Shown in pieces: positions 3,568-34,027 of a stretch of 64,000 nt of DNA. Each line of letters begins with the position of its first letter. The first letter of the stretch is position 1. The notes below the pieces were generated by a model, which was not told the DNA's origin, ran no database searches, and worked only from the letters and a program-made list of their open reading frames with translations. A program made the translations under genes and the position numbers. Source of the stretch: an uncultured Elusimicrobia bacterium (lineage in GTDB: Bacteria > Elusimicrobiota > Elusimicrobia > CAZMIB01); contig CAZMIB010000001.1 of NCBI GenBank assembly GCA_964566245.1, positions 4,777-68,776 of the forward strand. The letters are read 5' to 3'.

Positions 3568-3602
3568 GCCCTCTCCTAATGGGAGAGGGTGGGGGTGAGG
3601 GG
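3568..3602. repeat. GC-rich palindromic element copy (CCCTCTCC-TAAT-GGGAGAGGGTGGGGGTGAGGG), intergenic after the large repeat-protein gene. A perfect 14-bp palindrome GGGTCCTAGGACCC lies at 3656-3669.
   Basis: Sequence read directly; it shares the GGGAGAGGGTGGGGGTGAGGG arm with the other copies. Confidence 0.7.
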
Positions 3603-3727
3603 CAGGTCTAGGTCTCCCTGCCTAATGACCCAGGTCACCTTTCCCGTCGATGACATGGGTCCTAGGACCCCTGACCCTCCGGGAGCCTTCCTTTAATATA
3701 TGGGGGACCGGCAAGCGCCGGCTCTCC

Positions 3728-5380
3728 ATGACCGTCTTCCGTCTGTTCCTTTGCGCTGTTCTCGCTCTTCAGCCCTTCCGCGCCGCGTTGGGCGCGACCA
3801 AGGCCGATAAGCCCGGCTTCTCGCCCATCCTTCCCGTCGGGCTGAACCAGGCCGCGCCGGCCCTGCCTCAACTCCAAGCTCCGCTTGTCGCTCCCTCGGC
3901 CGCGCCGGCTCCAGCGCCGAGTCTCGCCCCGGTCTCGGGCACCTCCGGGGTCAACGCCAAGGAGGCGATCGCCTTTCTCAAAGGGCGGAAAAAAATAAGG
4001 GCGGTGTTCGTCGACGCGGCCGGCTACGGACACCAGACGGCGACGCTGTCCTTGATACGGCGTTTGCGCGAGTTGGGCTACGAAGGGAAACTAGAGGCCG
4101 TCTTTGAGAACGACATCTTGGACGAGGACCGCGGATTGTCCAAGAAGCTGGGCCAGCTTCTTCCGGAGTTCGACCCGTTCGGGCCCGCCGTCCAGCATCT
4201 GCCGGGCCTCGGCCTGACGATGCGGGATCTCGGGCCCCGCGACCGCGGCCAAGGGCCCGTCCGCCTGGAGCCCGTCGCGCTGGCGTTCACGGGCGGCGCC
4301 GACCCCAAGCGTTCCTACGCGCGAAAATACAACGCCGACGTCTTCCTGCGCCTGGGTCCGATGGGCTGGCTGGAGCAAAACTATTGGGAGGTCTATCCGG
4401 ACCAGCTCTATCGTCGCGACCAGGAGGCCGGGATTCCGATCCGGTCGAGACGAGACGCTCCGTTGATCTACCGGCCTTTGGCCGAGGAGATGGACGATGC
4501 TTGGTTCTCGCGGATAGCCCCCGCGAACCTCGAGCCTGAAAAGGCGGCGGGCCTGAAGACCTTGGCGCGCCGCATTGAAGAGCATGACGTTCTCGCCGCC
4601 TACGGGCTTCAGTATTTCAACGAGGACAGATTGACCTTGCTTCTCGTTTCCATCTCGCACGCCATGGAGACTCGTCCCGAGCTGTTCAAGGGCCGCGGCG
4701 TGGTCGTGCCGCTGTTGTCGGAGTTCCAAGGCGCTATCGCCGGCGTTCAATCCCGGCTCGATCACCCAAGGCGGGACAACGGCTGGATAGCGGCGCCGCG
4801 CCGGGGCGCGGCGATCTCGAGCAAGCGAAAGGCGGCTCGGCGCGTGAGCTTCGCCGACGTGCGCGATCCGGACCTGGACGTGACGCTGCGCCGCGTGGGT
4901 CCGGGGGATATCGTCGTCGTCGAGACGGGCGCCGTCCCGCCGGCGCTGTTCGAGCGACTGTTTTCCGCGAGCACCTTGCCGCCGACCCTGGAGGGCTGCA
5001 ACGCGACCAACCTGGCCCGTCTGCTGGGCCTGCCTTTCCTGCCGGTCACCATGTGGCAGCTCGACCGGCTCGTCGATCGGTTCGCCGCCTCCGAGGCCAA
5101 GCGACGGGAGGTGAGCCGGTTGGTTTATTCCCGCCGCGCCGGCATGCACGACTCGATCGCTTACGCGCTGCTGGGCGGCGAGGGCGAGTTCGCCTTCGAG
5201 CGCATCGCGGCGTACATCGCGGCCGCGATGACGCCCGGCTCGTCGCTCCGGCGCATGTTCGAGGACGCGAAACTGCGACAGGATGATTATATTCGCGACA
5301 AGCTGGTTTTCGCCGCGCGGCGAGCCCTGGCCATGTCGCGCCGAGACGCCGCGGGCGCGTCGGGGAAGCCTTCGCCATGA
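3728..5380 (+). CDS. Secreted protein, paralog 1 of 3 (unknown family). It has a signal peptide, a Pro/Ala-rich linker and a conserved ~450-aa domain. Motifs: KKIRAVFVDAAGYGHQTATLSLIRRLRELG, TGGADP, and ETGAVPPALFERLFSASTLPPTLEGCNATNLARLLGLPFLP.
   Basis: ORF 3650..5380 re-started at ATG 3728 (MTVFRLFLCAVLALQPFRAALGATKADKP) by alignment with the paralog 2 and 3 N-termini. Stop overlaps the next start (ATGA). Confidence 0.6.
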   Translation: MTVFRLFLCAVLALQPFRAALGATKADKPGFSPILPVGLNQAAPALPQLQAPLVAPSAAPAPAPSLAPVSGTSGVNAKEAIAFLKGRKKIRAVFVDAAGYGHQTATLSLIRRLRELGYEGKLEAVFENDILDEDRGLSKKLGQLLPEFDPFGPAVQHLPGLGLTMRDLGPRDRGQGPVRLEPVALAFTGGADPKRSYARKYNADVFLRLGPMGWLEQNYWEVYPDQLYRRDQEAGIPIRSRRDAPLIYRPLAEEMDDAWFSRIAPANLEPEKAAGLKTLARRIEEHDVLAAYGLQYFNEDRLTLLLVSISHAMETRPELFKGRGVVVPLLSEFQGAIAGVQSRLDHPRRDNGWIAAPRRGAAISSKRKAARRVSFADVRDPDLDVTLRRVGPGDIVVVETGAVPPALFERLFSASTLPPTLEGCNATNLARLLGLPFLPVTMWQLDRLVDRFAASEAKRREVSRLVYSRRAGMHDSIAYALLGGEGEFAFERIAAYIAAAMTPGSSLRRMFEDAKLRQDDYIRDKLVFAARRALAMSRRDAAGASGKPSP

Positions 5381-7200
5381 CGCGCTCCCGGCTGGCCGCT
5401 TGCTTTCTCCTCGTCGGCGCTCGCCTCGCCGCCTTCGGCGCGACGAAGGCGGACAAGCCCGTCCTTCCGTTCCTCGCGCCGACGGCTCTCAACGAAACAG
5501 TTCCGGCGATCCCCGCAATCGCGCGGCCCTTGGTGGAAGGGGCAGGTCTTGAACAGCCGGTTCTTGTCCCCGTAGCCCCGCGGCCCGAGCCCTCACCCCA
5601 CCCTCTCCCGCTACCGGGAGAGGGTGCTGAGGCGGTCGCGAAGTTTCCCCGGCGCCTGGCCGGGCTCTCCGAGGTGCTCGACGCGAATCGGCCCGCCGAA
5701 CGGCAGGCCGCGGCGCTCGACGCGGCGTTCTCCGGCGCGGCGGGAAAAGAGGAGGGGGAGCGGGGCGTCTCGGGCCTCGCCCTTGCGGAAGGAAAGGTTC
5801 CGCCCGAGGAGGCGATCGCCTACCTTAAAAGCCTCAAGAAGATCCGGGTCGCTTTCGTCAACGCTCCGGGCTTCGGCCATCAGATGGCGACGGTCTCGTT
5901 GATCCGCCGACTCAGGGAGCTGGGCTGCGAGGGCGAGATCGAGGCGGTTTATAAGGATCTGGATTTGCTGGGGAAAGCGAACCGGGTGCTGCGCGACAAG
6001 CTGGGCCAGCTTTTACCGGAGTTCAACCCCATCGGGCACAAAGTCCAACTCCTGCGGAGCGTGGGCGTGACGATGCGCAACATCACGCACGAGGAAGACT
6101 CCTTGCCCCGCGTCTCCTTCGGCCTCACCGGCGGCGCCGACGGCAACGAGCGTTTCGCGGACAAGTACAACGTCGATACCTTCCTGCGCCTGGGGCCCAT
6201 GGACTGGCACCGCCATTACCGGGACCAAGTCTACTTCAGGGCGCTCGGCGCCGGCATCCCGGTAGACGTCCGCGACGACGCGGCGCTCCTCTATCGTCCG
6301 GGATCGGAGGCGATCAACGATGATTGGTTCGGCCGTCTCAAGCGGGCGAACGTCGATCCGTCGAAGGCGGCCGGCCTGCGGACCTTGGTCCGCGGGCTCG
6401 GGGAGCACGACGTCCTCGCGTCCTACGGGCTGGCGAAGTTCAGGCCGAGCTCTCTGGCGGTGGCGCTCGCCTCCGTCGCCCGCGCGATGGACGAGCGGCC
6501 CGAGCTGTTTCGGAAACGAGGCGTCGTCGTGCCGCTTCTCCTGGATGTCGACTCGACGGTCACGGGAGTGGAAGCGATCGTCGCCGCGCCGGAGAAACAT
6601 AACGCGGACGTCGCTCCGACGCGCCTGCCGGCGGTGATCGCGGCGAAGCGCCGGCTGGGCGAACGGCTCAAGATCGCGTCGATCGGTGAGCCCGGGCTGA
6701 AGCACAGGCTGGGACGGTTGGGATCCGGGGACATTTTGGTCGTGAAGACGGGCGGCGCCCCGCCCGCGTTGTTCGAGCATTTTTTCAAGCGAAGCACGTT
6801 GCCGCCGACCGTGGAGGGCAAGAACGCTCAAAACCTTTGCCGCCTCCTGGGTATCCCTTTCCTGCCGCTGGACATGCTGCAGCTCAACGCGCTGATGCAA
6901 GAGCTTCCGGAACTGGGCGCGGACCGCCAGGCGGTCCAAGGCTTGCTCTATTTTCCAGGAGAGGACGGTCCGATGTCGCTGGCGTTGGCGTTGCGCTACG
7001 CGCAAACGGAGTTCGCCGTCGAGCCGATCGCGGCGTATATCGCCGCCGCCCTGACTCCCGGCTCGCCGCTGCGCCGGATGTTCGCCGACGCGCGGCTCGG
7101 GCAGGACGACTACGCCCGCGACAAGCTCGTCTCCGCGGTCCAACGCGTCCTCTTCCTTCAAAAAAGCGACTTGTCCTTGGCCCGCGCGCCGCGACCATGA
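5377..7200 (+). CDS. Secreted protein, paralog 2 of 3. Motifs: KKIRVAFVNAPGFGHQMATVSLIRRLRELG and KTGGAPPALFEHFFKRSTLPPTVEGKNAQNLCRLLGIPFLP.
   Basis: Aligns clearly with paralogs 1 and 3. Signal peptide MTRSRLAACFLLVGARLAAFGATKADKP. The N-terminal linker contains a palindromic-element copy (5589-5629). Confidence 0.65.
   Translation: MTRSRLAACFLLVGARLAAFGATKADKPVLPFLAPTALNETVPAIPAIARPLVEGAGLEQPVLVPVAPRPEPSPHPLPLPGEGAEAVAKFPRRLAGLSEVLDANRPAERQAAALDAAFSGAAGKEEGERGVSGLALAEGKVPPEEAIAYLKSLKKIRVAFVNAPGFGHQMATVSLIRRLRELGCEGEIEAVYKDLDLLGKANRVLRDKLGQLLPEFNPIGHKVQLLRSVGVTMRNITHEEDSLPRVSFGLTGGADGNERFADKYNVDTFLRLGPMDWHRHYRDQVYFRALGAGIPVDVRDDAALLYRPGSEAINDDWFGRLKRANVDPSKAAGLRTLVRGLGEHDVLASYGLAKFRPSSLAVALASVARAMDERPELFRKRGVVVPLLLDVDSTVTGVEAIVAAPEKHNADVAPTRLPAVIAAKRRLGERLKIASIGEPGLKHRLGRLGSGDILVVKTGGAPPALFEHFFKRSTLPPTVEGKNAQNLCRLLGIPFLPLDMLQLNALMQELPELGADRQAVQGLLYFPGEDGPMSLALALRYAQTEFAVEPIAAYIAAALTPGSPLRRMFADARLGQDDYARDKLVSAVQRVLFLQKSDLSLARAPRP
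5589..5629. repeat. GC-rich palindromic element copy (GCCCTCACCCCACCCTCTCCCG-CTACC-GGGAGAGGGTG) inserted in frame in the paralog 2 linker, where it encodes EPSPHPLPLPGEGAEA
   Basis: Direct read of the sequence and its translation. Confidence 0.75.
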
Positions 7201-9185
7201 CCGCCTCCCGCCGTCTCGCGCTTCTCCTCTCGCTCGGCCTCGCGGCCGGAGCAAGAGCCGCGACGGAGAAGGAATCCCCTCCGGCCGTCGTTGTCGTTCC
7301 CTCGCCCCCGATGGGGGGAGAGGGTGGGGTGAGGGGGTTGGCGGCTCCCATGCCCTCACCCCTTCCCTCTCCCGCAAGCGGGCGAGGGAGTTCCTTGGGA
7401 AACATCTCCCAGCCTGCCGCGCATTTTCATCCTTTGCCTCCTGCGGTCGTGTCCGCGGTTCGCGTTATCACCGCCGCGAAGGCGGCTGTCGGCAATGCCG
7501 TCTCTCCGGCGGCGAAAGCCGCGGCGCTGGATCGCCTCTACTCCGGCGCGGCCGAGAGAGACGGCGTCGAAATTCTCGAGACCTCCGATGCCGCGGGGCC
7601 GGGTTTCGCGAGCCTCGCGGCGCGTCGATCCGAGCCTCCGGCGCGCGCGCCCGCGGCCTTCGATCCGGCGCCGGATATCGCCTTCCTCAAGCGCCTCAAG
7701 AAGATACGCGTCGTGTTCACTCATGCCCCGGGCCTCGGCCACCAGACGGCGACGTTGTCGATCGTCCGCCGGCTCAGGGATTTGGGCGTCAAGGCGCCGA
7801 TCGAGGCGATCTATCATGCCGTCAAAGGGGACCCGCAAGACCTCAGGCTCAAGCTGGCCCAGCTCATGCCCGAGTTCGATCCTCACGGCCCGGATGATCA
7901 GCGCGTGCCGTCGCTGAACATGACTTTGCGAAGCTGGGACAGCTTCAGGCGCGACAGGGACGACGTGGTGCTGGGGCTGACCGGAGGCGCGGACAAGTCC
8001 ATCGGCAATTTCGCCCGCCAATACCGGACAGAGATTTTCGCGAGGCTGAAACCTTACGGCTGGGGGGACTACGAGGACGAGCTTCACGTCCTCGAGAGCG
8101 GCAAGGTGAGCTTGCTGTCCTACATCGACGCGTCCTCGGGCCACGGGGCCTTTGTCTATCGGCCCGCCCAGGATCAGGTCGGCGCGGCGTATGTCGATGC
8201 TTTAAACCCGAATAATGTTCCGGCGGCGAAGGCCGCCGGCCTGAAGGTCCTGTTGCGCGAGCTGCCGAAGCGCGACTCCTTGGCCGCCTACGGCCTCCAC
8301 TTCTTCACGCCGCGCGCGCTTCACCGCCTGCTGCTCGGAGTGTCTCGCGCGTTGGACGATCGGCCCGGCTTGTTCAAGGGCCGGGGCGTGGTCGTGCCGC
8401 TGCTTCTCGATATCGACGACACGGTCGACGACATGCAGGATCAAATCAAAATCCCGCGCTTGATCTTGAACTCCGTCACCGATCCGCGGTGGCGCGCCGT
8501 CCTTGTCGCCAACGGCAAGCTGCGCCGCCGGCTGAAGATCGCCGACATACGCGACCCGGCCCTGTCGGAAAAGATCGAGGGAATGAAGCCCGACGACATC
8601 CTTGTCGTGAAGACGGGTGCCGTTCCGCCGCCGCTCTTCGAATGGTTCTTTTCGCGTAGCACCTTGCCGCCGACCTTGGAGGGCAAGAACGCGACCAACC
8701 TCGCGCATCTGCTGGGCATCCCCTTCCTCCCTATCAAGGAGGACGTCCTGGCGGGGCTCATCGATCGCGTTCCCGAGGGCGGGCCCAGGGAGGCGGTCGC
8801 CGCGCTGCTCCACGTCCGGACCGGCGTCATCGGCATGTCCATCTCCGCCGTGCTGCACCATGACGATTTCAGCTTCGCCTTCGAGAAGCTCGCCGACTAC
8901 ATGATCGCGGCGATGACGCCCGGCTCGCCGCTGCGGGAGATGTTCCGGAGCGCGCGCATCGCCCAGGACGATTACGCGCGCGACAAGCTGCTGCAGGCGG
9001 TCCGACAGGCGAGGCCGCGGATGGGCGCCCCGCCGAGTCCATGGCGCCGGTTCCTCGACGCCTGCCTCCGGTGGCTTCCCGGCCGCTCCAAGGAAAAGCC
9101 CGCGCCGCCGCCGGCTTCCCAGGGCCGGCAAGGGCCCACGGGACGCGAGCGGGTGAGCTTTTTCGGCCCCAAGGACCCTCTTTAA
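7197..9185 (+). CDS. Secreted protein, paralog 3 of 3. Motifs: KKIRVVFTHAPGLGHQTATLSIVRRLRDLG and KTGAVPPPLFEWFFSRSTLPPTLEGKNATNLAHLLGIPFLP.
   Basis: ORF 6837..9185 re-started at ATG 7197 (MTASRRLALLLSLGLAAGARAA) by paralog alignment. Start overlaps the paralog 2 stop. The linker carries two palindromic-element copies. Confidence 0.6.
   Translation: MTASRRLALLLSLGLAAGARAATEKESPPAVVVVPSPPMGGEGGVRGLAAPMPSPLPSPASGRGSSLGNISQPAAHFHPLPPAVVSAVRVITAAKAAVGNAVSPAAKAAALDRLYSGAAERDGVEILETSDAAGPGFASLAARRSEPPARAPAAFDPAPDIAFLKRLKKIRVVFTHAPGLGHQTATLSIVRRLRDLGVKAPIEAIYHAVKGDPQDLRLKLAQLMPEFDPHGPDDQRVPSLNMTLRSWDSFRRDRDDVVLGLTGGADKSIGNFARQYRTEIFARLKPYGWGDYEDELHVLESGKVSLLSYIDASSGHGAFVYRPAQDQVGAAYVDALNPNNVPAAKAAGLKVLLRELPKRDSLAAYGLHFFTPRALHRLLLGVSRALDDRPGLFKGRGVVVPLLLDIDDTVDDMQDQIKIPRLILNSVTDPRWRAVLVANGKLRRRLKIADIRDPALSEKIEGMKPDDILVVKTGAVPPPLFEWFFSRSTLPPTLEGKNATNLAHLLGIPFLPIKEDVLAGLIDRVPEGGPREAVAALLHVRTGVIGMSISAVLHHDDFSFAFEKLADYMIAAMTPGSPLREMFRSARIAQDDYARDKLLQAVRQARPRMGAPPSPWRRFLDACLRWLPGRSKEKPAPPPASQGRQGPTGRERVSFFGPKDPL
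7298..7338. repeat. GC-rich palindromic element copy (CCCTCGCCCCCG-ATGG-GGGGAGAGGGTGGGGTGAGGGGG) in frame in the paralog 3 linker
   Basis: Direct read. Confidence 0.7.
7352..7391. repeat. GC-rich palindromic element copy (GCCCTCACCCCTTCCCTCTCCCGCAAGCGGGCGAGGGAG, followed by TTCCTTGGGAA) in frame in the paralog 3 linker, where it encodes [15 protein letters not shown]
   Basis: Direct read. Same left arm and GCAAGC loop as the copies at 15673 and 33975. Confidence 0.75.
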
Positions 9186-9234
9186 AAGCTCGCCCGCCCT
9201 TGTCCCGTCGACGGGGGGGTGGTAAAATAAATTC

Positions 9235-10726: not shown

Positions 10727-10756
10727 CCCGTCGATTTTAGCAGTTTGTCTTTTGTC

Positions 10757-11650
10757 TCACCGTGCCCTCTCCCCAAGGGAGAGGGGGAGGGCGAGGGGTT
10801 CTGATTTCATCCATCCTAATCCGACCACCGACCCCACCACCAGCGCCATCCCCACCCACGTCGCCGCGTTGGGTCGTTCATTCCAAAACATCCATCCGCC
10901 GGCCGCGGTCATCACGACCGAGAGCATCATCGCCGCCCCGCTTTTCGAGACCGGGCAAAGCTCGAAGCCGCGCGTCATCAGCCCTTGTCCCGCGGTCGCG
11001 CTCGTGGAGACGGCGAGCAGGACGGCCCAGCCGATCACGTCGGGCCGGCTCCATTGAACAACGGCGAAGGGCGCGGTCGCGGCCGCCCCGACGAGGTTGA
11101 AGTAGAACACGATCCTCCACGCGGGCTCGTCCTTCGTCAGGGCCCTGACCGTGGCGTACGAGACGCCGCCGATCACTCCGGCGCCGAGGCCGATCGCGTA
11201 GCCGACCCAGTCGCTGCCGCCCTGGGGGTGGACGACCAGGGCGACTCCGGTCAGGGCCGAGGCCAGCAGCCCCCCCGACGCGGGCGTGAGGCTCTCGCCG
11301 AGCGCGACGACGGCGATCACGGCCGCGAACAGCGGCGCGGTGTAGTTGAGCAGCACCGCGGTCCCGAGCGGGATGTGCGCGAGGGCCCAGAAGTAGCAGG
11401 CCATGCTCCCGATGCCCCACAGCCCCCGCGAGACGAGCAGCGGCCACCGCCGGCTGGCCGCGGAAAGGCCCTGCCGGCGCATGATCCGCAGCACCACCGG
11501 GAGCGCGAGCGCGTTGCGGAACAGGCATATCTCCGCGGTGCCGATAGAGCCCTTCAGGGCCTTGATCAGCATGCTCATGACCGCGAAGCACACGGCCGAC
11601 GCGGCGACGAGGCCGATGCCCCGCAGCTCGCTTTCCCGGGAGGGACGCAT
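10757..11650 (-). CDS. EamA/DMT-family transporter. Its C-terminal tail (...SEPLALPLSLGERAR) is encoded by a palindromic-element copy.
   Basis: Duplicated EamA-like TM pattern (NYTAPLFAAVIAVVALGE...). Stop at 10757. Confidence 0.7.
   Translation of the reverse strand: MRPSRESELRGIGLVAASAVCFAVMSMLIKALKGSIGTAEICLFRNALALPVVLRIMRRQGLSAASRRWPLLVSRGLWGIGSMACYFWALAHIPLGTAVLLNYTAPLFAAVIAVVALGESLTPASGGLLASALTGVALVVHPQGGSDWVGYAIGLGAGVIGGVSYATVRALTKDEPAWRIVFYFNLVGAAATAPFAVVQWSRPDVIGWAVLLAVSTSATAGQGLMTRGFELCPVSKSGAAMMLSVVMTAAGGWMFWNERPNAATWVGMALVVGSVVGLGWMKSEPLALPLSLGERAR
10764..10798. repeat. GC-rich palindromic element copy (GCCCTCTCCCCAAGGGAGAGGGGGAGGGCGAGGGG) overlapping the 3' coding end of the EamA gene
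   Basis: Direct read. Confidence 0.7.
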
Positions 11651-12928: not shown

Positions 12929-13031
12929 CGGCGCAAGTAGTCGCTGTCGCCGCAAAAATGTTAGGGTCCCAGCGAAGGGACCGCCAATAAGGGGTGAATG
13001 TTCCGGGCCGAGGCGAAACGGCCTACCCGCG

Positions 13032-14563: not shown

Positions 14564-15451
14564 ATGATAGAGACACTTTCGGCGACGGAGCTTCCGGGCG
14601 TCACCAGGCTGCGCAGCGGCAAGGTGCGCGACGTCTTCGACCTCGGCGACAGGCTGCTGCTGGTCTCGACCGACCGCCTCTCGGCCTTCGACCACATCCT
14701 GCCGACGCCGATCCCGGACAAGGGGCGCGTGCTGAACGCGCTGTCGACCTTCTGGTTCAACTGGTCGCGCGAGCTGGCGCCCAATCATTTGATCACGACC
14801 GACGTCTCCAAGTACCCCATGCCGCTGCGCGAGCACCGCGCGACGCTGGAGGGGCGCTCGAGCCTCGTCCGCAAGGCCAAGCGCATCGACGTCGAGTGCG
14901 TCGTGCGCGGCTACCTCTCCGGCTCCGGCTGGAAGGACTACAAGGCGCACGGGATGATCTGCGGCCAGGCGCTTCCGGAGGGCTTGGTCGAGTCCCAGCG
15001 CCTGCCGATGCCGATCTTCACGCCGACGACGAAGGCCGATGAGGGCCACGACAAGCCGATCACGATGACCGAGGTCCAGTCGATGATCGGCCCGGAGCTC
15101 GCGCGGCGCGTGCAGGACATGAGCCTTTTGCTTTACTCCGCGGGGGCCGACTACGCCGAGAAGCGCGGCCTCATCCTCGCCGACACGAAGTTCGAGTTCG
15201 GCGTGCTGGACGGCGAGGTGATCGTGATCGACGAGATGCTCACGCCCGACTCGTCGCGCTTCTGGGACAAGGAGTCCTACGCGCCGGGCCGCTCGCAGAA
15301 CCAGTTCGACAAGCAGTACGTCCGCGACTATCTGGAGAAGATCGGCTGGAACAAGGAAGCCCCGGCCCCCGCGCTCCCGCCCGACGTCGTCGCCCAGACG
15401 ACCAAGCTTTACCGCGAGGCTTACCGGAGGCTGACCGGGCTGGAACTGTGA
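14564..15451 (+). CDS. purC: Phosphoribosylaminoimidazole-succinocarboxamide synthase (SAICAR synthetase)
   Basis: GKVRDVFDLGDRLLLVSTDRLSAFDHILPTPIPDKGRVLNALSTFWF is diagnostic. ATG 14564 follows GGGAG; the alternative start at 14549 overlaps guaA. Confidence 0.85.
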   Translation: MIETLSATELPGVTRLRSGKVRDVFDLGDRLLLVSTDRLSAFDHILPTPIPDKGRVLNALSTFWFNWSRELAPNHLITTDVSKYPMPLREHRATLEGRSSLVRKAKRIDVECVVRGYLSGSGWKDYKAHGMICGQALPEGLVESQRLPMPIFTPTTKADEGHDKPITMTEVQSMIGPELARRVQDMSLLLYSAGADYAEKRGLILADTKFEFGVLDGEVIVIDEMLTPDSSRFWDKESYAPGRSQNQFDKQYVRDYLEKIGWNKEAPAPALPPDVVAQTTKLYREAYRRLTGLEL

Positions 15452-16011
15452 ACCGAACGCCGGCGGCGCTGATCGAGGTCTCGACGCGAGAGGGCTTCAG
15501 CGACTCCGCCGCCTCCGGCGTTCTATCGCTGGCGAAAGAGCTGGGCGTCCCGGTCGAAAAAGCCGCGACCGTCGCGCTGTACCGGTTGGAAGGGGACCTG
15601 GATCGCGCGGCGCTGACGAAGCTGGCGTCCGAGCTGCTGACGGATCCGGTCACCGAAACATACGAAATTGTTCCCTCACCCCAACCTTCTCCCGCAAGCG
15701 GGCGAGGGAGCTCTTCAATAAGCAACTCTGTTCCATTAGAAAGGAACTCCCTCGCACCGCGTGAGCGGGGAGAGGGCCGGGGTGAGGGGCAGTCGTTGCC
15801 GTGCCTCACCCTCGACATCTGGCTCAAACCCCAAGTCGCCGACCCGGTCGCGCCATCCATTGAACGCGGCGCGAAGGACCTGGGCTTTTCCTTGAAGGCC
15901 CGCATCGGCCGCCGCTATCGCCTGTTCGGGCCGTTGAACGCCGAGGCCGCCAAGACCGTCGCCTGGAAGGCGCTGGCCAATCCCGTCGTCCACGAGTGCG
16001 AGGTCCGATGA
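15448..16011 (+). CDS. purS: PurS-like FGAM synthase subunit. It is unusually long (187 aa) and contains two PurS-like halves separated by a 117-bp palindromic-element insertion.
   Basis: The second half, CLTLDIWLKPQVADPVAPSIERGAKDLGFSLKARIGRRYRLF...ANPVVHECEV, is canonical PurS. The first half, ...LTDPVTETYEIV, is PurS-like. Position is between purC and purL. Confidence 0.65.
   Translation: MNRTPAALIEVSTREGFSDSAASGVLSLAKELGVPVEKAATVALYRLEGDLDRAALTKLASELLTDPVTETYEIVPSPQPSPASGRGSSSISNSVPLERNSLAPRERGEGRGEGQSLPCLTLDIWLKPQVADPVAPSIERGAKDLGFSLKARIGRRYRLFGPLNAEAAKTVAWKALANPVVHECEVR
15673..15789. repeat. Long (117 bp) version of the GC-rich palindromic element, with terminal inverted repeats CCCTCACCCC...GGGGTGAGGGG. 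Inserted in frame in purS, where it encodes [14 protein letters not shown]...RERGEGRGEG.
   Basis: Direct read: the left end CCCTCACCCCAACCTTCTCCCGCAAGCGGGCGAGGGAG and the right end GCGGGGAGAGGGCCGGGGTGAGGGG are inverted relative to each other. Confidence 0.75.
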
Positions 16012-22278: not shown

Positions 22279-23217
22279 ATGAAGCACCTTCTCGGCATCG
22301 AGGACCTGTCGGCCGCGGACATCACCGCCTTGCTGGACGAGGCGGAGGGGTTCAAGCGCCGCTGGAGCTCGAGCCGGAAGGCGTCGGCGAATCTTAAGGG
22401 CAAGACGGTCGGCCTGCTGTTCTACGAGCCGTCGACGCGCACGCGCTCCTCGTTCGAGTTGGCCGCGAAGCGCCTCGGGGCCGAGGTGGTCAACCTCTCG
22501 CCGTCCTCCTCCAGCGTCGTTAAGGGAGAGAGCCTTTCGGACACCTTGCGCACCTTGGAGGCGATGGGCGTCGACGCCTTCGTGATACGTCACGCCGAGT
22601 CCGGGGCGGCGCGCGCCGCGGCGAAGGCCGTGAGCGCCTCGATCGTCAACGCCGGCGACGGCGCGCACGAGCACCCGACCCAGGCCTTGCTCGACTTCAT
22701 GACCTTGCGCGAGAAGAAGAAGCGCCTGGCCGGGCTGAAGGTCGTTTACGTCGGAGACATCCTGCACAGCCGGGTCGCGCGCTCCGGCGTCTTCGGCCTC
22801 ACCAAGCTCGGCGCGACGGTCGCCTTCTGCGGCCCGCCGACCTTGGTCCCCGAGGAGGCCCGCGCGTTGGGCGCCGAGGTGCATCACGATCTGAGGCGCG
22901 CCTTGAAGGACGCCGACGCCGTCGTCACGCTGCGGCTCCAGCTTGAGCGTCAGAAGGAAAATCTTTTCCCGAGCCTGGGCGAGTACGCGAAGCTTTACGG
23001 CCTGAGCAGCGAGAAGCTCCACTGGGCCAAACCCGGCTGCGTCGTCCTGCATCCTGGCCCCATGAACCGCGGCGTCGAGATCACCGACGAGCTTGCCGAC
23101 GGCGCGTCGTCCTTGGTGCTGGAGCAAGTCGCGAACGGCGTCTTCATAAGGATGGCCGTGCTGGCCCGACTCCTCTCTGGGAGTCGTTCAAAGACAAGAG
23201 GTTCGGTTCTGAAATGA
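22279..23217 (+). CDS. pyrB: Aspartate carbamoyltransferase catalytic subunit
   Basis: [15 protein letters not shown]...HPTQALLD motifs. Confidence 0.9.
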
Positions 23218-24068
23218 AGGGCATGACTCGGGTTCTCCCTCGCCCCGCGTGCGGGGAGAGGGTGGGGGTGAGGGGATCGAGGATCGCCGTCATACTTGCC
23301 GTTCTCTGCGCCGCCTCGGCCTACGCCTCCACCCCAACCGAAACTCACTTTCACGAGTCCGCCCTTCTATCCTCCGTGGTCCGTTACGCTCAAGCCCATC
23401 CCGCCGCCACGCCCGCCGACATCGCCCGCAAGGCCGACGAACTGTTGCCCCGCGAAGGCCTAAACTTTAAAGCCGCGCTCGACGATTGGAAGACCGACGT
23501 CGAAGCCACCTTGCACAAGGATGCCGCCCTCAAGCGGAAGCTGGGCAAATATCGTCTGGAACCGCTGTCGGCCCAAGCCAGCACGACCTCGTGCGGGACC
23601 GCTTATTACCTGCCGTTCACCAACAATCCCGCCGAGATCGCCGGCATAAGCCTGGCCGACCGGACCGCGTACCTGAAAACGCGCGGCGCCTTCCGCTTCG
23701 ACAGCGTCGCCTTGCTGGAGCGCGGCCGCGCGCGGCCGGTGCGTCGCTGGCCGCTGCCCGATGAGAGCGAGGTTCCCGCGGGGATATCGAAGGATGGCCG
23801 GACCCTCTTTCTGGAGTATAAGCTCGCCTCGGCCGAGACCGGTTGGACGCCGATCAAGGCCGGCGGCGAGGACCACATGCTCCTGGCGATCGGCCCGGAA
23901 AGTCTCATTTTCGCCGACAACTACGCCGAGCTGTCGAAGCAAAGTTGGGACACCCTCGAGGAACTACCCTGGAAGGTCCCGGCCCCCGAAGGCGACTACG
24001 AATCCTTCGGCGTGCTGAAGGCGTGGGGAAAAGAATTCTATTTCGGCTTCGAGCCTATATGTCGATAA
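23214..24068 (+). CDS. Hypothetical secreted protein. The 5' end overlaps a palindromic-element copy; the true start may be GTG 23268, which gives the signal peptide VRGSRIAVILAVLCAASAYAS.
   Basis: ORF track; signal-peptide-like N-terminus; no family recognised. Confidence 0.45.
   Translation: MKGMTRVLPRPACGERVGVRGSRIAVILAVLCAASAYASTPTETHFHESALLSSVVRYAQAHPAATPADIARKADELLPREGLNFKAALDDWKTDVEATLHKDAALKRKLGKYRLEPLSAQASTTSCGTAYYLPFTNNPAEIAGISLADRTAYLKTRGAFRFDSVALLERGRARPVRRWPLPDESEVPAGISKDGRTLFLEYKLASAETGWTPIKAGGEDHMLLAIGPESLIFADNYAELSKQSWDTLEELPWKVPAPEGDYESFGVLKAWGKEFYFGFEPICR
23230..23276. repeat. GC-rich palindromic element, deletion variant (GGTTCTCCCTCGCCCCGCGTGCGGGGAGAGGGTGGGGGTGAGGGG)
   Basis: Matches the internal hairpin plus right terminal repeat of the 173-bp copy at 31150. 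Confidence 0.7.
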
Positions 24069-28407: not shown

Positions 28408-28410
28408 CTC

Positions 28411-29382
28411 ATGCCACTGACCTATAAGCAGTCCGGCGTCGACGTCGGCCTCGCCGACAAGCTCGTCGAGCATTTGCGGAAGCGCTCGCCGGTCATCGGC
28501 GGTTTCTCGGGGCTGCATCCGTTTCGTCTCGGCAGCCGCGAGATTTTCCTCGCGGCCTCGACCGACGGGGTCGGTACCAAGCTTAAGCTCGCGTTCCTGT
28601 TGGACAAGCACGACACGGTCGGGGTCGACCTGGTCGCGATGTGCGTCAACGACCTCGTCACCTGCGGGGCGACGCCGCTGTTCTTCCTGGACTACTACGC
28701 CACCGCGAAGCTCGACCTAAAGCGCTCGAAGAAGCTGCTGGACGGCGTGCTCGAGGGGTGCAGGCTCGGGCGCATGACGCTTTTGGGCGGCGAGACCGCC
28801 GAGATGCCGGGCTTCTATAAGGAAAAGGAGTACGACCTGGCCGGCTTCGCGGTGGGCTGGGTCGAGAAGAACGACGTGCTCGACGGCCGTTCCGCGCGCG
28901 AGGGCGACCTGCTGGCCGCCTTGCCCTCCTCGGGCCTGCACTCGAACGGCTTCTCCTTGGTGCGCAAGGCCTTCAGCGACGCCAAGCTCAAGCGTCAGCC
29001 GGACCTGCTGACACCCACGCGCATCTACGTCGACGAGGCCCGCACCTTGCGCGCGGCCTTGGGCGGGCGCTTGAAGGCCATGGCGCACATCACCGGCGAG
29101 GGTTTGGAAGGGAACGTGCCGCGCGTGTTGCCGAAGGGGCTGCGCGCGGTCGTCGAGCGCGGGCGCTGGGACGTGCCCGAAATTTTTCGCAGGGTGCAAC
29201 ACGCCGGCAAGGTGCCCGAGGCCGACATGTGGTCGACGTTCAACATGGGGACGGGCCTCGTGGCGGTCATTTCGCCGGAGGCGCTGACGCGCGCCAAGCG
29301 CGCCGCGCCGGATTTGTTCGTGATCGGGCGCATCGAGAAGGGTCGAACGGGCTTCGCGTTCGAGGGGGACTCGCGTGGCTAA
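28411..29382 (+). CDS. purM: Phosphoribosylformylglycinamidine cyclo-ligase (AIR synthetase)
   Basis: LTYKQSGVDV...TDGVGTKLKLA.... Confidence 0.9.
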   Translation: MPLTYKQSGVDVGLADKLVEHLRKRSPVIGGFSGLHPFRLGSREIFLAASTDGVGTKLKLAFLLDKHDTVGVDLVAMCVNDLVTCGATPLFFLDYYATAKLDLKRSKKLLDGVLEGCRLGRMTLLGGETAEMPGFYKEKEYDLAGFAVGWVEKNDVLDGRSAREGDLLAALPSSGLHSNGFSLVRKAFSDAKLKRQPDLLTPTRIYVDEARTLRAALGGRLKAMAHITGEGLEGNVPRVLPKGLRAVVERGRWDVPEIFRRVQHAGKVPEADMWSTFNMGTGLVAVISPEALTRAKRAAPDLFVIGRIEKGRTGFAFEGDSRG

Positions 29383-31729
29383 GCTGGCCGTCCTCGCGTC
29401 CGGCGAGGGAACGAACTTCCAAGCGATCGTGGACGCCGCGCGCTCCGGCTGGCTGAGCGCGCAGGTGGCCGTGCTGATCTCAAGCCGCAAGGACGCGGGC
29501 GCGCTGCGCCGCGCGCGCGAGGCGGGCATCGAGACCACGGTCCTGGAGCCGACGGCCTTCCCCACGCCCGAGGCTTACGGCGAGGCTCTCGCGAAGGCCT
29601 GCCGTGACAAAGGTGTCGATCTGATCTGCCTCGCGGGCTATCTGCCCAAACTGCCCGACGCGGTGCTCAAGGCCTTCCCGGGAAAGGTGCTGAACATCCA
29701 TCCGGGGCTTTTGCCCGCCTTCGGCGGCAAGGGCATGTACGGGCGCAAGGTCCACGAGGCCGTGATCGCGGCGGGGGCCAAGGTCACCGGCTGCACGGTG
29801 CACATCGTCGACGAGGAATACGATCACGGGCCGATCGTGCTTCAAGCCACGGTCCCGGTCGCGGACGGCGACACGCCGGAGACGCTGGCCGCGCGCGTCC
29901 TCGAGGTCGAGCACCACCTTTATCCGAAAGCCGTGAAGCTGTTCTGCGAGGGGCGGGTTCACCTTGAAGGCCGGATGGTCCGCATAAAACCCGAGACAGC
30001 CAAGTCCGGCCAGGTGCGCCGCGCGCTGATCTCGGTCTCGGACAAGACCGGCGTCATCGAGCTGGCGCGCGAGCTGGCACGGCTGGGCGTCGAGCTGGTT
30101 TCGACCGGCGGCACCGCGAAGGCTCTCGCCGCGGCGGGACTGTACGTGCGCCCGCTCGGCACGATGACCCACTGGCCCGAGATGTTCGGGGGGCGCGTGA
30201 AAACCCTTCACCCCGCGGTGCACGGCGGCATCCTGTTTCGGCGCGACGATCCGGAGCACGCGCGTGAGGCGGCCCAGCACATGATCGAGCCGATCGATCT
30301 GGTGGTGGTGAACCTGTACCCGTTCGCGGAGGCCGCGAAGAAGCACCGCGCTTTCGAGCCCGAGCTGATCGAGGAGATCGACATCGGCGGGCCGACCCTC
30401 GTTCGCGGCACGGCGAAGAACTGCGACTCGGTGGCCATCGTCACGAGCCCGGCCGACTATGGGGCCGTCGTCGAGGAGCTGAAGTCGAAGGGCGAGCTGT
30501 CGCTGGAGACGCGAAGGAATCTGGCGAGGAAGGCGTTTCAGTCGACCGCCGCGTACGACGCCGAGATCGCGCGGGCCCTCTCCACGGCCGCCGATGGGGC
30601 GCGCTTCCCGGCCGCGTTGGACCTGCGCCTCGACAAGGTGCAGGACCTGCGCTACGGCGAGAACCCGCATCAAGCCGGCGCGCTCTACCGTGTCAGCGGA
30701 TCGGAACGGCCGTTCGAGCAGCTCCAGGGAAAGGAGCTCTCGTATAACAATCTGCTCGATGCCGAGGGGGCTTGGGGACTCGTCCAAGAGTTGGACGGCC
30801 CGGCCGCGGTGATCTTCAAGCACGTCACCCCCTGCGGCGCCGGCGCCGGACGGACCATCGTCGAGGCCTACCGCCGCGCCTGGGAGGCCGACGGCGTCTG
30901 CGCCTTCGGCGGCATCCTCGCGCTGAACCGCCCGCTCGATGCCGAGGTGGCGAAGGCGATCGGGGAGTTTTTCCTAGAGGTCATCGTCGCGCCGGAATTC
31001 ACCCCCGAGGCGCGCGAGTTGCTGCAACGAAAGAAGAACCTGCGCCTCCTGGAGCGTCGCCCCGGCGAGGCCGCTGCGCTGGAGTACCGCGTGGTGGGGA
31101 CGGAGGTGCTGGTTCAAGAACCGGATAAGGCCTTGTGGGCTGCGCAGAACCCCTCACCCCCACCCTCTCCCACAAGTGGGAGAGGGAGCTCCTTGGGAGT
31201 TCTCCGGCACCAGGTCTCCCTCGCCCCGCGTCAGCGGGGACGGGGGGAGCCCGGTGGGCTCCCCCACGAGCCTGGCCGTGGAGGGGGGCGGCTGGGAAAG
31301 GATGAGGGTGGGGGTGAGGGGGCGGATCTCTGGAAAGTCGTCACGCGCCGCGCGCCCACGCCGGAGGAATCCGAAGCCCTTCGCTTCGCCTGGCCGGTCT
31401 CGAAATACACCCGCTCCAACGCGATCGTGGTCGCGACGTCCGTTCAGACGCTCGGCATCGGCGCCGGGCAGATGTCGCGCGTCGACGCGGTGCAGGTCGC
31501 GGCGATGAAGCTCGCGCAGTACGCGCAGCGCAAGCCGATCCCGGCGACTCTCGCCGCGGCCTCGGATGCCTTCTTCCCGTTCCGCGACGGCATCGACGAA
31601 TTGGCTAAACTGAACGTGACGGCGATCGCCCAACCCGGCGGCTCGGTGCGCGACGAGGAAACGATCAAGGCCGCCGACGAGCGCGGCATGGCGATGGTAT
31701 TCACGGGGATGCGGCATTTCAGGCATTGA
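29375..31729 (+). CDS. purH: Fused PurN-PurH protein (784 aa): GAR formyltransferase (PurN-like, ~aa 1-200) joined to bifunctional AICAR formyltransferase/IMP cyclohydrolase. Carries an in-frame 173-bp palindromic-element insertion.
   Basis: The N-terminus [16 protein letters not shown]...[12 protein letters not shown]...[16 protein letters not shown] is PurN. ...[11 protein letters not shown]...LYPF... is the PurH MGS-like domain. There is no stop between them. The start is GTG 29375. Confidence 0.8.
31150..31322. repeat. Full-length (~173 bp) GC-rich palindromic/MITE-like element. Its terminal inverted repeats are CCCTCACCCCCACCCTC ... GAGGGTGGGGGTGAGGG, and it has internal hairpins (CCCTCTCCC-ACAAGT-GGGAGAGGG; GGGAGCCC-GGT-GGGCTCCC). 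Inserted in frame in purH, where it encodes about 58 extra residues.
   Basis: Direct read of both ends and the internal perfect hairpins. The translation [14 protein letters not shown]...GGGEGADLW interrupts an otherwise PurH-like sequence. Confidence 0.8.
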
Positions 31730-31775
31730 GTATTATTTATTGATAAGTAAAGTGTCTGAAAATCGAAGGGAATTC

Positions 31776-32318
31776 ATGGAAAATAAAAGAGCGACGCGCT
31801 GGTTGGTGCCTCACGGCGAAACGCTAGAGGAGCGCATCTACCTCGTTCGTGGACGCAGGGTCATGCTCAGCACGGATTTGGCCGAGCTCTATGGAGTAAA
31901 GCCCAAGGCGCTCGTGCAGGCCGTAAAGAGGAACACGGCGCGGTTCCCCGCGGATTTCATGTTCCGCTTGACGGCCAAGGAGGCCGGTTCTTTAAGGTCA
32001 CAAATTGTGACCTTAAAGAGGGGTGCGCATCGTAAGTATCCGCCGTATGCTTTCACCGAGCAGGGTGTCGCTATGCTCTCGGGCGTATTGCGCAGTCGGA
32101 GGGCTGTCCAAGTCAATGTAGCTATCATGCGGACATTCGTCAAACTTCGAGAGACATTGTCATTGCATAAGCAGCTTGCAGTGAGGCTTGATGACTTGGA
32201 AAGAAAAATAATGGAGCATGACGGCCAAATTCAAAGCGTTTTCGATGCGATCAGACAGCTTATGGAGCCGCCGGAGAAGGATAGTTTGAAGATTGGTTTT
32301 CGGCTTGAGGGGCGGTAG
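31776..32318 (+). CDS. ORF6N-domain DNA-binding protein, encoded in a low-GC insertion
   Basis: RVMLSTDLAELYGVKPKALVQAVKRNTARFPADFMFRLTAKE...YAFTEQGVAMLSGVL matches the ORF6N/KilA-N-type domain. Local GC is clearly lower than in the flanks. Confidence 0.6.
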   Translation: MENKRATRWLVPHGETLEERIYLVRGRRVMLSTDLAELYGVKPKALVQAVKRNTARFPADFMFRLTAKEAGSLRSQIVTLKRGAHRKYPPYAFTEQGVAMLSGVLRSRRAVQVNVAIMRTFVKLRETLSLHKQLAVRLDDLERKIMEHDGQIQSVFDAIRQLMEPPEKDSLKIGFRLEGR

Positions 32319-32360
32319 CATGGATTTGCAGGGCAGCCGACCTTGGATCGGAGACGATTT

Positions 32361-33518
32361 ATGAACAGGCTCGCGGCGTTGGCGATGGAGGATGGGACGG
32401 TTCTTTTCGGCGAGGCTTGCGGGGCCGAGGGGGAACGCACCGGGGAGCTTGTTTTTAATACGTCGCTGACCGGCTATCAAGAGGTGCTGACCGATCCTTC
32501 CTATAAAGGGCAGATCGTCGTGATGACGTATCCGCATATCGGCAACTATGGCGTGACGCGGGAGGATATGGAGGCGCCTAATCCCGCGGCCGAGGGGCTC
32601 GTGGTGCGGGAGAGCAATCGAGTTTACTCCAACTGGCAGGCTGTCGAAGGATTAGAGTCATTCCTCAAGAGGTACAGCCTCGTCGCGATTTCCGATGTCG
32701 ATACGCGGCATCTCGCGACCTTGCTGCGGCAGAAGGGGGCGATGCGGGCCGTCGTGTCCACGTTGGACATGGACAAGCGGCGGCTCGTGAAGAAGGCGCG
32801 CGAGGCGCCTTCGATGGCGGGGCTCGATCTGACGGGGCGCGTCACGTGCCGGAAGACGTATGTTTACTCCGAGGGGCCCGTGGCAGGTCCGAGGCCCGCT
32901 ACTCCGGCGTTGCCGACGCCGCATGTGGTCGCGGTCGATTACGGCGTGAAGCTGGGAATCCTCAGGCAGCTCGCGGCGATCGGGGCGCGCGTCACCGTCG
33001 TGCCGGCGCATGCGACCGCGGATGAGATCAAGGCGCTCAATCCGGATGGACTTTTGCTCTCCAACGGGCCGGGCGATCCGGAGCCGGTGAGGCACGCGAT
33101 CGAGACGATCAAGCGGACTTTGGAGTGGGAGCTGCCGACCTTCGGCATCTGCCTGGGCCACCAACTGCTCGGGCTGGCGCTCGGCGGCAGGACGTACAAG
33201 CTCAAGTTCGGCCATCGCGGGGCGAACCATCCGGTGAAGGACCTCGACACCGGCAAGATCGAGATCTCGACGCACAACCACGGCTTCGCGGTCGATGAGC
33301 GGAAATTGCCGCGCGAGCTGAAGCCGACCTACGTCAATTTGAACGACAAGACGCTGGAAGGAATGGCGCACACCCAGCTTCCGGTGTTCTCGGTGCAGTT
33401 CCACCCGGAGGCCTCGGGCGGGCCGCACGACAGCCGGCACCTCTTCATGAGGTTCCGCGACATGATGCTCAAGCGCATGGGCGCCCTGGCGGGCGCGGGA
33501 GAGACCCTTGGCCGATAA
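32361..33518 (+). CDS. carA: Carbamoyl-phosphate synthase small (glutaminase) subunit
   Basis: LVFNTSLTGYQEVLTDPSYKGQIVVMTYPHIGNYG...GICLGHQLL... Confidence 0.9.
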   Translation: MNRLAALAMEDGTVLFGEACGAEGERTGELVFNTSLTGYQEVLTDPSYKGQIVVMTYPHIGNYGVTREDMEAPNPAAEGLVVRESNRVYSNWQAVEGLESFLKRYSLVAISDVDTRHLATLLRQKGAMRAVVSTLDMDKRRLVKKAREAPSMAGLDLTGRVTCRKTYVYSEGPVAGPRPATPALPTPHVVAVDYGVKLGILRQLAAIGARVTVVPAHATADEIKALNPDGLLLSNGPGDPEPVRHAIETIKRTLEWELPTFGICLGHQLLGLALGGRTYKLKFGHRGANHPVKDLDTGKIEISTHNHGFAVDERKLPRELKPTYVNLNDKTLEGMAHTQLPVFSVQFHPEASGGPHDSRHLFMRFRDMMLKRMGALAGAGETLGR

Positions 33519-33972
33519 GAACGACAAGACCCGCAGGCTCATCGTCACCGACATCGAGCGCCAATGGCTGTCCAGGGTGCTCGAGATCAATTTCCAGGGG
33601 CCCTCGGCCGACGATTTGAAGGCGCTGCTGCCCTCGCTGACGCGCGAGAGCTTCGCGAAGGGCGAGGCCATCGTTCAGGAGGGCTCGGACGGGACCGACG
33701 TGTTCTTCCTTCATAAGGGCCTGGCGCTGGTGACGAAGAAGAAGTTCATCGGCGCCCGCAACGTCGTGAAGCTCAAGCCGGGAGAGGTGTTCGGCGAGGT
33801 GGGATCCTTGGTTCACGCCGAGCGCTCGGCCAGCGTCGTCGCGGACGACGCCGTCGAGGTGCTGCGCGTCCCGTGCAAGGAGTTCCAGGCCTTGCTGGAG
33901 AAGCATCCGCAGCTCGAGGCTTACTTTCAGACGGTGGCGCGGCAGAGGATGCAGGAGTTGGCGGGGGGGTAG
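33508..33972 (+). CDS. Stand-alone cyclic nucleotide-binding (CAP effector-like) domain protein
   Basis: FAKGEAIVQEGSDGTDVFFLHKGLALVTKK...GEVFGEVGSLVHAERSASVVA is the cNMP-binding fold signature (FGE...RSA). Confidence 0.65.
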   Translation: MADKNDKTRRLIVTDIERQWLSRVLEINFQGPSADDLKALLPSLTRESFAKGEAIVQEGSDGTDVFFLHKGLALVTKKKFIGARNVVKLKPGEVFGEVGSLVHAERSASVVADDAVEVLRVPCKEFQALLEKHPQLEAYFQTVARQRMQELAGG

Positions 33973-33974
33973 GC

Positions 33975-34027
33975 ACCCTCACCCCCACCCTCTCCCGCAA
34001 GCGGGAGAGGGCGAGGGGGAGGGGGAG
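33975..34027. repeat. GC-rich palindromic element copy (CACCCTCACCCCCACCCTCTCCCGCAAGCGGGAGAGGGCGAGGGGGAGGGGGAG), intergenic upstream of carB
   Basis: Direct read. Confidence 0.8.

Follow-up and report, generated by a model that had tools for sequence, protein, structure and literature searches.

A family of short, GC-rich palindromic repeats is spread over the first half of a 64,000-nucleotide stretch of DNA from an uncultured Elusimicrobia bacterium (contig CAZMIB010000001.1; the whole stretch is called the window here), and most of its copies lie in open frame inside genes. Judged by its sequence, the repeat is the intrastrand triplex motif known as boxC, PIT or TMECO. In total, 13 repeat units have been found at 9 loci between 3569 and 34023, where chance would yield none; seven of these loci overlap open reading frames (ORFs), three essential purine genes among them, and the copies at 3569 and 33976 are intergenic. 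We regard it as rather probable that the window copies are boxC/TMECO elements that have survived in frame at tolerant sites, most likely as non-autonomous elements with a YcjD-like DUF559 endonuclease as the probable mobilising partner.

The motif has been published as 5'-CCCTCNCCC N3-6 GGGNGAGGG N3 GGGNGAGGG-3' with at most one mismatched position, and was named boxC, then PIT and then TMECO (Holder et al., 2015, PMC4666352). Exact matches to this pattern have been found at 17285-17320 and on the reverse strands of 31151-31186 and 33976-34011, and 11 window units match it at ≤1 mismatch per block with loops of 2-9 and 2-4 nt. The basic element, as read from these copies, is a three-block unit of ~35 nt, in which a 9-nt C-block, a short loop and a complementary G-block are followed by 2-3 nt and a second G-block. 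The initial annotation of this DNA had taken the short copies for collapsed pairs of terminal inverted repeats; instead, the ~35-nt unit is canonical, and the long copies are inverted pairs of units. Its count of at least 11 copies of a GC-rich palindromic family has held up: the 21-mer CCCTCACCCCNACCCTCTCCC matches the window 11 times at ≤3 mismatches (positions 3581, 7353, 10777, 15673, 15768, 17300, 23254, 31151, 31300, 33976 and 34003), whereas none of 100 dinucleotide shuffles has contained any match, and the high copy number that characterises boxC/TMECO is thus already seen within these 64 kb. A relaxed three-block pattern has located units at 3569, 5590, 7299, 7353, 10765, 15673, 17285, 23237, 31151 and 33976/33988, to which degenerate partner units at 15749-15788 and at 31218-31245 plus 31301-31321 are added. 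Neither the 21-mer nor the three-block search has found a unit or block motif 3' of 34023, the 42-64 kb island included, in agreement with the earlier statement that this island is free of copies. A scan of the whole window against Rfam at gathering thresholds has returned no family, and a tRNA/tmRNA scan of the window has found none of these genes.

Units occur singly and, as described for boxC/TMECO, in inverted pairs. The pair at 7299-7400 is laid out (+)/(-) like the pairs of E. coli, and the two long composites, 15673-15789 and 31151-31321, are inverted pairs of the type unit(-)...unit(+) with a common architecture, in which a left unit extended by AGYTCCTT is separated by a spacer from a right unit whose loop is of the CGCGTG type. 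Their terminal inverted repeats, which had been noticed before, have been confirmed with 21 nt at 86% and 18 nt at 100% complementarity. Folding of the copies as single-stranded DNA, proposed earlier as a check, has likewise come out in favour of the palindromes: seven of the nine stretches reach z = -4.3 to -6.7 against shuffles, and even the weakest folds (10763-10799, z = -2.5; 23235-23276, z = -2.4) are better than their shuffled counterparts. By inspection, the four G-tracts of the unit also fit a G-quadruplex motif, the computed folding having covered hairpins only. When the unit is read directly in six frames, a stop codon appears in just one of them, and the encoded peptides are of the types PSPxPSP, LTPxLS, PHPxPLP, GEGxGEG and ERVGVRV; the tolerance of the repeat in coding DNA is attributed to these two properties.

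The clearest in-frame case is the composite of ~171 bp at 31151-31321, which lies in the AICARFT domain (~amino acids 592-650) of a PurN-PurH fusion gene on the plus strand (29375-31729) that is otherwise intact and conserves the invariant residues, as judged from Pfam and alignment. It consists of unit(-) at 31151-31186, the extension AGCTCCTTGGGA, a degenerate hairpin (31218-31245), a palindrome (31243-31265) and terminal G-blocks (31301-31321). The fused protein comprises 784 amino acids, against ~720-747 in eleven homologues of 58-74% identity, and a ~57-residue segment ending in GGGGEGAD has been found in the window protein only, at a site that varies in length among the eleven. In the AlphaFold2 model, the predicted local distance difference test score (pLDDT) is below 50 at residues 565-651 and residues 592-652 are coil, and the flanking AICARFT segments are confidently folded. 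The fusion itself, PurN (Formyl_trans_N) joined to PurH (MGS plus AICARFT_IMPCHas), is common to hundreds of homologues, many of them in metagenome-assembled genomes (MAGs) labelled Elusimicrobia. The palindrome at 31243-31265 is a second, unrelated perfect hairpin (GGGGGAGCCC-GGT-GGGCTCCCCC) and may be another small element nested in the composite.

Two further purine genes carry copies. In purL (15996-18383, plus strand; otherwise intact by Pfam and alignment), a canonical TMECO-pattern unit on the plus strand (17285-17321) is preceded by a degenerate C-block (17264-17284), and both are in frame at ~amino acids 423-442, in the variable loop that connects the first AIRS_C domain to the second AIRS domain. 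This loop is 7-14 residues longer than in ten aligned homologues, which the canonical 36-nt core 17285-17320 accounts for; the degenerate upstream arm may be partly ancestral. The 117-bp composite at 15673-15789 stands in frame between the two PurS domains of a tandem PurS-PurS gene (15448-16011, plus strand; Pfam), and is made up of unit(-) at 15673-15708, the extension AGCTCTTC, a spacer and a degenerate unit(+) at 15749-15788. The resulting linker insert of ~36 residues is missing from all three detectable relatives, which are PurS-PurS proteins of 153-170 amino acids as well; among 5.8 billion proteins, just these three relatives could be detected, all of them tandem. The copies in purL and purH share the loop ACAAGT, and both follow AGAAC (17261-17264; 31147-31150), which could be a target preference or a part of the element.

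The remaining coding copies are found at protein ends and N-terminal linkers. A single unit at 5590-5624 (minus strand; pattern search, open frame) lies in frame in the second of three secreted paralogs (ORF 5377-7200), where its C-rich strand is the coding strand and encodes ~amino acids 72-83 (PSPHPLPLPGEG), a linker after the signal peptide. The third paralog (7197-9185) carries the (+)/(-) pair in its N-terminal linker, also in frame, with the left half at 7299-7336 (plus strand) and the right half at 7353-7400 (minus strand), a unit with the conserved extension AGTTCCTTGGGA that encodes a 16-residue peptide. The signal peptides of the three paralogs start at 3729, 5377 and 7197, and paralogs 2 and 3 carry their units just past them, whereas paralog 1 has none at the equivalent linker. 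These tandem paralogs (3729-9185) share 43-51% identity, measure ~550-660 amino acids and have no Pfam match, and paralogs 2 and 3 overlap by their stop and start codons, respectively (ATGA). At 10765-10798 (plus strand), a unit underlies the last 13 codons of an EamA transporter gene (10757-11650, minus strand; Pfam and ORF reading), the tail PLALPLSLGERAR being encoded by the element, since the gene runs through it and the stop codon comes after. A single unit of the CGCGTG-loop subtype (23237-23275, plus strand) is located at the 5' end of ORF 23214-24068; the hydrophobic core of a signal peptide follows it closely, and GTG codons within the unit are in frame. It may form either an N-terminal extension or a 5' untranslated region that supplies an in-frame GTG start.

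The initial annotation had stated that reading frames stay open across the copies, and this has proved right for paralogs 2 (5377-7200) and 3 (7197-9185), EamA, tandem PurS, PurL and PurN-PurH. It had further asked for ortholog alignments, which have placed the extra peptides of PurN-PurH, PurS and PurL in linkers or loops and found them absent from relatives; ancestral low-complexity linkers in relatives, named beforehand as the finding that would overturn the insertion reading, have not appeared in the PurH, PurL and PurS alignments. Its comparison with Rickettsia palindromic elements (RPEs) is upheld for the in-frame behaviour at linkers and loops of conserved genes and has to be given up for the identity of the element, which is boxC/PIT/TMECO.

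Both intergenic copies are of the same kind. The single unit at 3569-3602 (plus strand), CCCTCTCC-TAAT-GGGAGAGGG-TGG-GGGTGAGGG, folds into a hairpin of -9.1 kcal/mol (z -4.3) and lies upstream of secreted paralog 1, 16 nt after ORF 536-3553 has ended. The copy at 33976-34023, between a cyclic-nucleotide-monophosphate (cNMP)-binding gene (33508-33972) and carB (34039-37284), is a full palindrome of two C-blocks, the loop GCAAGC and two G-blocks, equivalent to an overlapping unit(-) and unit(+). Intergenic and coding copies are the same in DNA sequence, non-structural positions and the lineage-specific spacer included.

Comparison with relatives points to a recent gain. PurL and PurH of the window share 54-75% identity with proteins encoded in MAGs, of which many bear the label Elusimicrobia; one related contig is binned as Myxococcota. 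The closest PurN-PurH relative, on a syntenic soil contig (L121, 75% amino-acid identity), has an unrelated Ala/Pro stretch at the position of the insert, and the 5 kb of this contig contain no motif anywhere. Its spacer between the cNMP-binding gene and carB measures 24 nt (L121 4720-4743), against 66 nt with the element in the window, which amounts to an empty site for the 33976 copy. No unit has been found in four loci of the closest available relatives (L121, L122, L124 and L125; ~58 kb in total). The spacer CA/TGG is present in five of seven window copies, compared with 2 of 137 instances among the listed matches from other genomes. Together, the unit-free relatives and this spacer bias indicate that a local CA/TGG subfamily was gained recently and amplified in this genome after divergence from those relatives.

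The family is neither novel nor special to this lineage. An exact scan with the 21-mer over species-representative genomes has given at least 120 loci, with 137 instances among the matches listed, in Alpha-, Beta-, Gamma- and Deltaproteobacteria, Planctomycetota, Verrucomicrobiota, Acidobacteriota, Chloroflexota, Cyanobacteria, Deinococcus, Omnitrophota, WOR-3, Sumerlaeota and others. In nearly all of the 137, a short loop and GGGAGAGGG come after the 21-mer, which completes the full unit; the family is therefore pan-bacterial and no property of the window lineage. Earlier work had reported TMECO for 262 proteobacterial genomes, with Salmonella lacking it, and counted 23 copies in E. coli K-12, all intergenic and at five loci forming inverted pairs (PMC4666352). 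An isolated TMECO strand forms a triplex in vitro, and no promoter or terminator activity has been detected (PMC4666352). Kaplan et al. (2016) have described the same sequences as a G-quadruplex/hairpin switch (HPG1-HPG2) in intergenic positions only (PMC5100583), and the genome paper on Enterobacter sp. 638 has counted 100 hairpins of the form CCCTCTCCC-loop-GGGAGAGGG, the Enterobacter copies being located at 3' gene ends. In-frame copies recur elsewhere. For 35 of the 137 listed instances, the frame is open over at least 80 codons in either direction, a criterion that is noisy in high-GC DNA and also flags the window copy at 23254 at a gene start, so that cases have been counted only from ten instances inspected with Pfam. 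In nine of these ten, the motif lies inside or between domains of one conserved protein: Mfd, NAD-dependent DNA ligase LigA (within its adenylation domain), an IcmF-like fusion, a YgiQ-type radical SAM protein, an ABC exporter, HsdR (immediately ahead of the Walker A motif), IspG, lipoamide dehydrogenase and MetRS. In the tenth (L071), domains are found on either side of the motif, possibly belonging to two adjacent genes. In-frame MITE insertions have been described for other systems, i.e., RPE, Coxiella QMITE and ERIC (PMC10969869); no earlier report of an in-frame boxC/TMECO insertion has been found in the literature searched.

A candidate for the mobilising partner emerges from the genes that the units bracket in other genomes. 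In Variovorax MetRS, two inverted units flank a DUF559 (PF04480) domain that is inserted in frame between the catalytic and the tRNA-binding domain, and an HrpA helicase accommodates a complete unit-DUF559-unit cassette, again in frame, between its two RecA domains. A jackhmmer search over the listed motif loci has further revealed an Acinetobacter DUF559 gene flanked by units, a Dyella DUF559 gene whose C-terminus runs into a unit, and two more DUF559 matches at 0.6-1.6 kb from a motif. In E. coli K-12, TMECO copy no. 9 lies 168 nt downstream of ycjD, which encodes a DUF559 protein. Among 80 metagenomic YcjD-like loci, 51 carry a three-block unit at most 200 nt away from the gene, a share of 64% that holds for the subfamily sampled and not for all DUF559, as these loci are the top matches to a query alignment to which motif-linked genes had contributed in part. 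Units are 28-fold denser near the DUF559 genes (92 in 56 kb, 1.64/kb) than in the other 273 kb of the same loci (16 units, 0.059/kb). The layout is stereotyped, unit(+) preceding the gene by 5-90 nt and its reverse complement following it after 2-30 nt; in several loci, reverse complementarity extends to the loops (e.g., CTTGA/TCAAG and GCTTGC/GCAAGC), and variant blocks of the GGGGGAGGG types co-vary between both ends of one element. The loci concerned are L127-L206 (metagenome), L002:1307-1795, L018:820-1474, L149:2047-5709 and L126 (E. coli K-12 1351204-1351760). As a specificity control, 56 distant Vsr/DUF559-like loci of viral contigs (~225 kb) have yielded no unit, compared with two of the six close YcjD-like loci. 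The Vsr clade of PD-(D/E)XK nucleases, to which DUF559 is assigned, counts a homing endonuclease among its members (PMC3424549). A link of the boxC/TMECO repeat to DUF559 or ycjD has not been found in the open-access literature searched. The E. coli fabI-ycjD-sapF region (L126, L207) says little about mobility of the unit: in 2080 of 5426 complete genomes, homology to K-12 ends ~40 nt before the boxC copy is reached, and O157:H7 has a TetR/RND efflux module in place of the ycjD/boxC segment and shows no clean empty site.

From these observations a mechanism can be proposed. The unit can form a hairpin and, in vitro, a triplex or G-quadruplex, and would be mobilised by a YcjD-like DUF559 endonuclease (Vsr fold, PD-(D/E)XK) whose gene is bracketed in other genomes by inverted units as RAYT genes are by repetitive extragenic palindromic (REP) sequences; gene and flanking units would travel as one unit, even in frame into host genes. 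The parallel to REP/RAYT is close, with a small nuclease gene bracketed by an inverted repeat that is itself far more numerous, and for this reason the window copies are taken as presumptive non-autonomous relatives of unit-DUF559-unit elements. A DUF559 enzyme would then move them, and its gene would be expected in this genome outside the window. The local CA/TGG subfamily has multiplied in this genome, where its units stand alone, in inverted pairs or as full palindromes; these solo units and palindromes, together with the pairs in (+)/(-) and the composites in (-)/(+) layout, may be derived from one another. Coding copies would survive if their length keeps the frame, if that frame is one of the five out of six that are stop-free, and if the site is a linker, surface loop or terminus; the element would then be translated into a Pro/Ser/Leu-rich or Gly/Glu/Arg-rich disordered peptide that the protein tolerates.

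Several points weigh against this interpretation. No DUF559 gene has been found in the 64-kb window (jackhmmer, six-frame ORFs), and we know of no biochemical activity of any YcjD-like protein on the boxC motif. The two long composites have the layout unit(-)...unit(+), the opposite of unit(+)-DUF559-unit(-), and are therefore no simple internal deletions of a DUF559 element; only the pair 7299-7400 fits. Relatives that are 54-75% identical are too distant for exact empty sites inside genes to be reconstructed, and the selection of the 80 DUF559 loci mentioned above has to be kept in mind. Finally, Holder et al. have seen no association of TMECO with mobile elements in E. coli (PMC4666352).

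The main rival reverses the causality: units would have spread by another route, be it slippage during replication, gene conversion or an unknown enzyme, and units or pairs already in place would serve DUF559 cassettes as homing sites, or else as terminators or insulators. It would explain why E. coli has 23 units and a single ycjD, with (+)/(-) pairs that enclose no gene, and why most units in the at least 120 listed genomes have no DUF559 nearby (4-5 DUF559 matches in ~800 kb); the inverse layout of the window composites speaks for it, too. However, the unit ends of DUF559 elements are co-varying reverse complements, loops included in several loci, which fits the ends of one element better than two older copies, and the whole units in HrpA and MetRS give no hint of a solo copy that preceded them. 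We consider this reading unlikely, with a minor but real share of the probability. A still smaller share falls to mobilisation by a RAYT (IS200/IS605-type Y1 transposase) encoded elsewhere in the genome, in which case the repeats would be REPs or REPINs. Short GC-rich imperfect palindromes, single and in inverted doublets, are what has been described for REPs (PMC4666352), but the gene that units bracket in other genomes is DUF559 and not RAYT, the ORFs of 36-64 kb scanned with Pfam include no Y1 transposase or RAYT, and the boxC motif crosses phyla whereas REP families are usually species-specific. REPs also carry a GTAG-type 5' tetranucleotide next to the palindrome, and no conserved tetranucleotide of this type is present in the window units or their flanks.

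Two readings appear very improbable. [quoted passage not shown] The 18-21-nt terminal inverted repeats of the two long copies, each below 200 bp, agree with this; the canonical unit, however, is a 35-nt three-block motif and not a pair of terminal repeats, neither a related insertion sequence nor a transposase has been found among the ORFs of 36-64 kb scanned with Pfam, and matching ends have been seen around DUF559 genes in other genomes. Target-site duplications above chance are absent as well, with a flanking direct repeat of at least 4 nt in 2 of 10 boundary sets (the nine loci, purL having been delimited in two ways), compared with 40% for random positions; this speaks against transposition of the DDE type and is in keeping with single-strand mechanisms or a nuclease plus repair. 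The other reading is non-mobile and takes the repeat as a convergently selected structural or regulatory signal (G-quadruplex/hairpin switch, triplex or terminator) and the coding copies as ancestral low-complexity linkers. Triplex and G-quadruplex/hairpin formation in vitro, a proposed regulatory switch (PMC4666352, PMC5100583) and the Enterobacter copies at 3' gene ends are in its favour. The ortholog alignments largely refute it, given that PurN-PurH, PurL and PurS orthologs are devoid of the segments and the relatives of the motif; nor does it fit that intergenic and coding copies agree down to non-structural positions and the lineage-specific spacer, that the motif brackets a nuclease gene and enters genes as a unit, and that published work has detected no promoter or terminator activity (PMC4666352). 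The REP/RAYT, MITE and non-mobile readings thus fit the data worse than boxC/TMECO elements kept in frame and moved by a DUF559 partner.

The placement of the copies, mostly intragenic and in frame, with three purine-biosynthesis genes hit within 16 kb, is new with respect to the literature searched, and so are the breadth across phyla with recurrent in-frame insertions and the association with YcjD-like DUF559 genes, the latter resting on data outside the window. The motif has been known since 1992, its triplex and G-quadruplex structures are well studied, and it has been described as strictly intergenic. To our knowledge, no origin, function or means of spread has been established for it. 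One may tentatively go further and propose, as a possibility that we place a little short of even, that boxC/TMECO repeats are the termini and miniature derivatives of pan-bacterial selfish elements encoding a YcjD-like DUF559 (Vsr-fold) endonuclease; their ends, stop-free in five of six frames, would encode flexible Pro/Ser or Gly/Glu linkers, and both miniature copies and the whole cassette would colonise essential genes in frame without splicing machinery. If so, the window would be an extreme case of such colonisation. As boxC repeats can sit in open frame inside genes of essential enzymes, gene calling is affected, and the copies mark insertion-tolerant loops in PurH, PurL and PurS, a high-GC counterpart to the RPE phenomenon of Rickettsia. 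Since E. coli K-12 has the candidate partner, YcjD/DUF559, how boxC is moved becomes a question that experiments can address.

Downstream of the repeats, the window carries a PIN-domain toxin and Phd/YefM antitoxin pair on the minus strand (38263-38960), and between 42000 and 64000 a defence island of lower GC content (57-63%). A perfect 40-bp palindrome (TACTCAGTACGCTGAGTAAA / TTTACTCAGCGTACTGAGTA; 41951-41990) stands exactly at the border of core and island, upstream of an ArsR/HxlR-type helix-turn-helix (HTH) gene. The island comprises genes for Schlafen/AlbA_2 with HATPase_c_4, Fic, an SNF2 helicase, an SMC-like AAA_23 protein, an OLD-family AAA_15 plus TOPRIM protein, an N6/N4 methylase with a ResIII helicase (type III-like restriction-modification) and two DUF1016/YhcG nucleases, one truncated, as well as an HTH_23/29 transposase-like fragment at 47824-48192. 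The ORFs of 36-64 kb scanned with Pfam are defence and housekeeping genes only, with no transposase or RAYT among them.

Among known systems, the boxC/TMECO repeats of E. coli are the nearest: the three-block pattern is the same and some blocks are near-identical (GGGAGAGGG-N3-GGGTGAGGG), and both sets are multi-copy, occur as singles and inverted pairs and have strong hairpin potential. The description as strictly intergenic, which characterises the E. coli copies and is no definition, does not extend to the window, where seven of nine loci overlap ORFs; moreover, the family has been reported from Proteobacteria, whereas the closest homologues of the window host come from Elusimicrobia-labelled MAGs, and the spacer TGG/CCA is a local variant. 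RPEs measure ~150 bp and form ten Rickettsia-restricted families, each with a conserved peptide that is compatible with fold and function of the host protein (PMC10969869). They share with the window copies the in-frame insertion of palindromic repeats into unrelated metabolic genes, preserved function being read in the window from intact conserved residues alone; in contrast, the window unit is ~35 nt long, GC-rich, pan-bacterial and read in several frames, and the likeness is taken to be one of behaviour only. Of strict MITE features, the two long copies show terminal inverted repeats, and target-site duplications are not seen. Like REP/REPIN-RAYT systems, boxC combines short palindromes as singlets and inverted doublets with a single-gene partner bracketed by inverted repeats, the differences being a Vsr-fold DUF559 endonuclease in place of a Y1 transposase, the lack of a GTAG-type signature and a motif that crosses phyla. 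Homing endonuclease genes and inteins, including the Vsr-fold enzyme I-Bth0305I (PMC3239194), resemble the DUF559 cassettes in that a gene of the Vsr/DUF559 clade is found in conserved host genes with the frame kept (HrpA, MetRS). The cassettes differ from them in having no intron or intein splicing module; the domain apparently stays in the host protein, flanked by the flexible peptides that the repeats encode.

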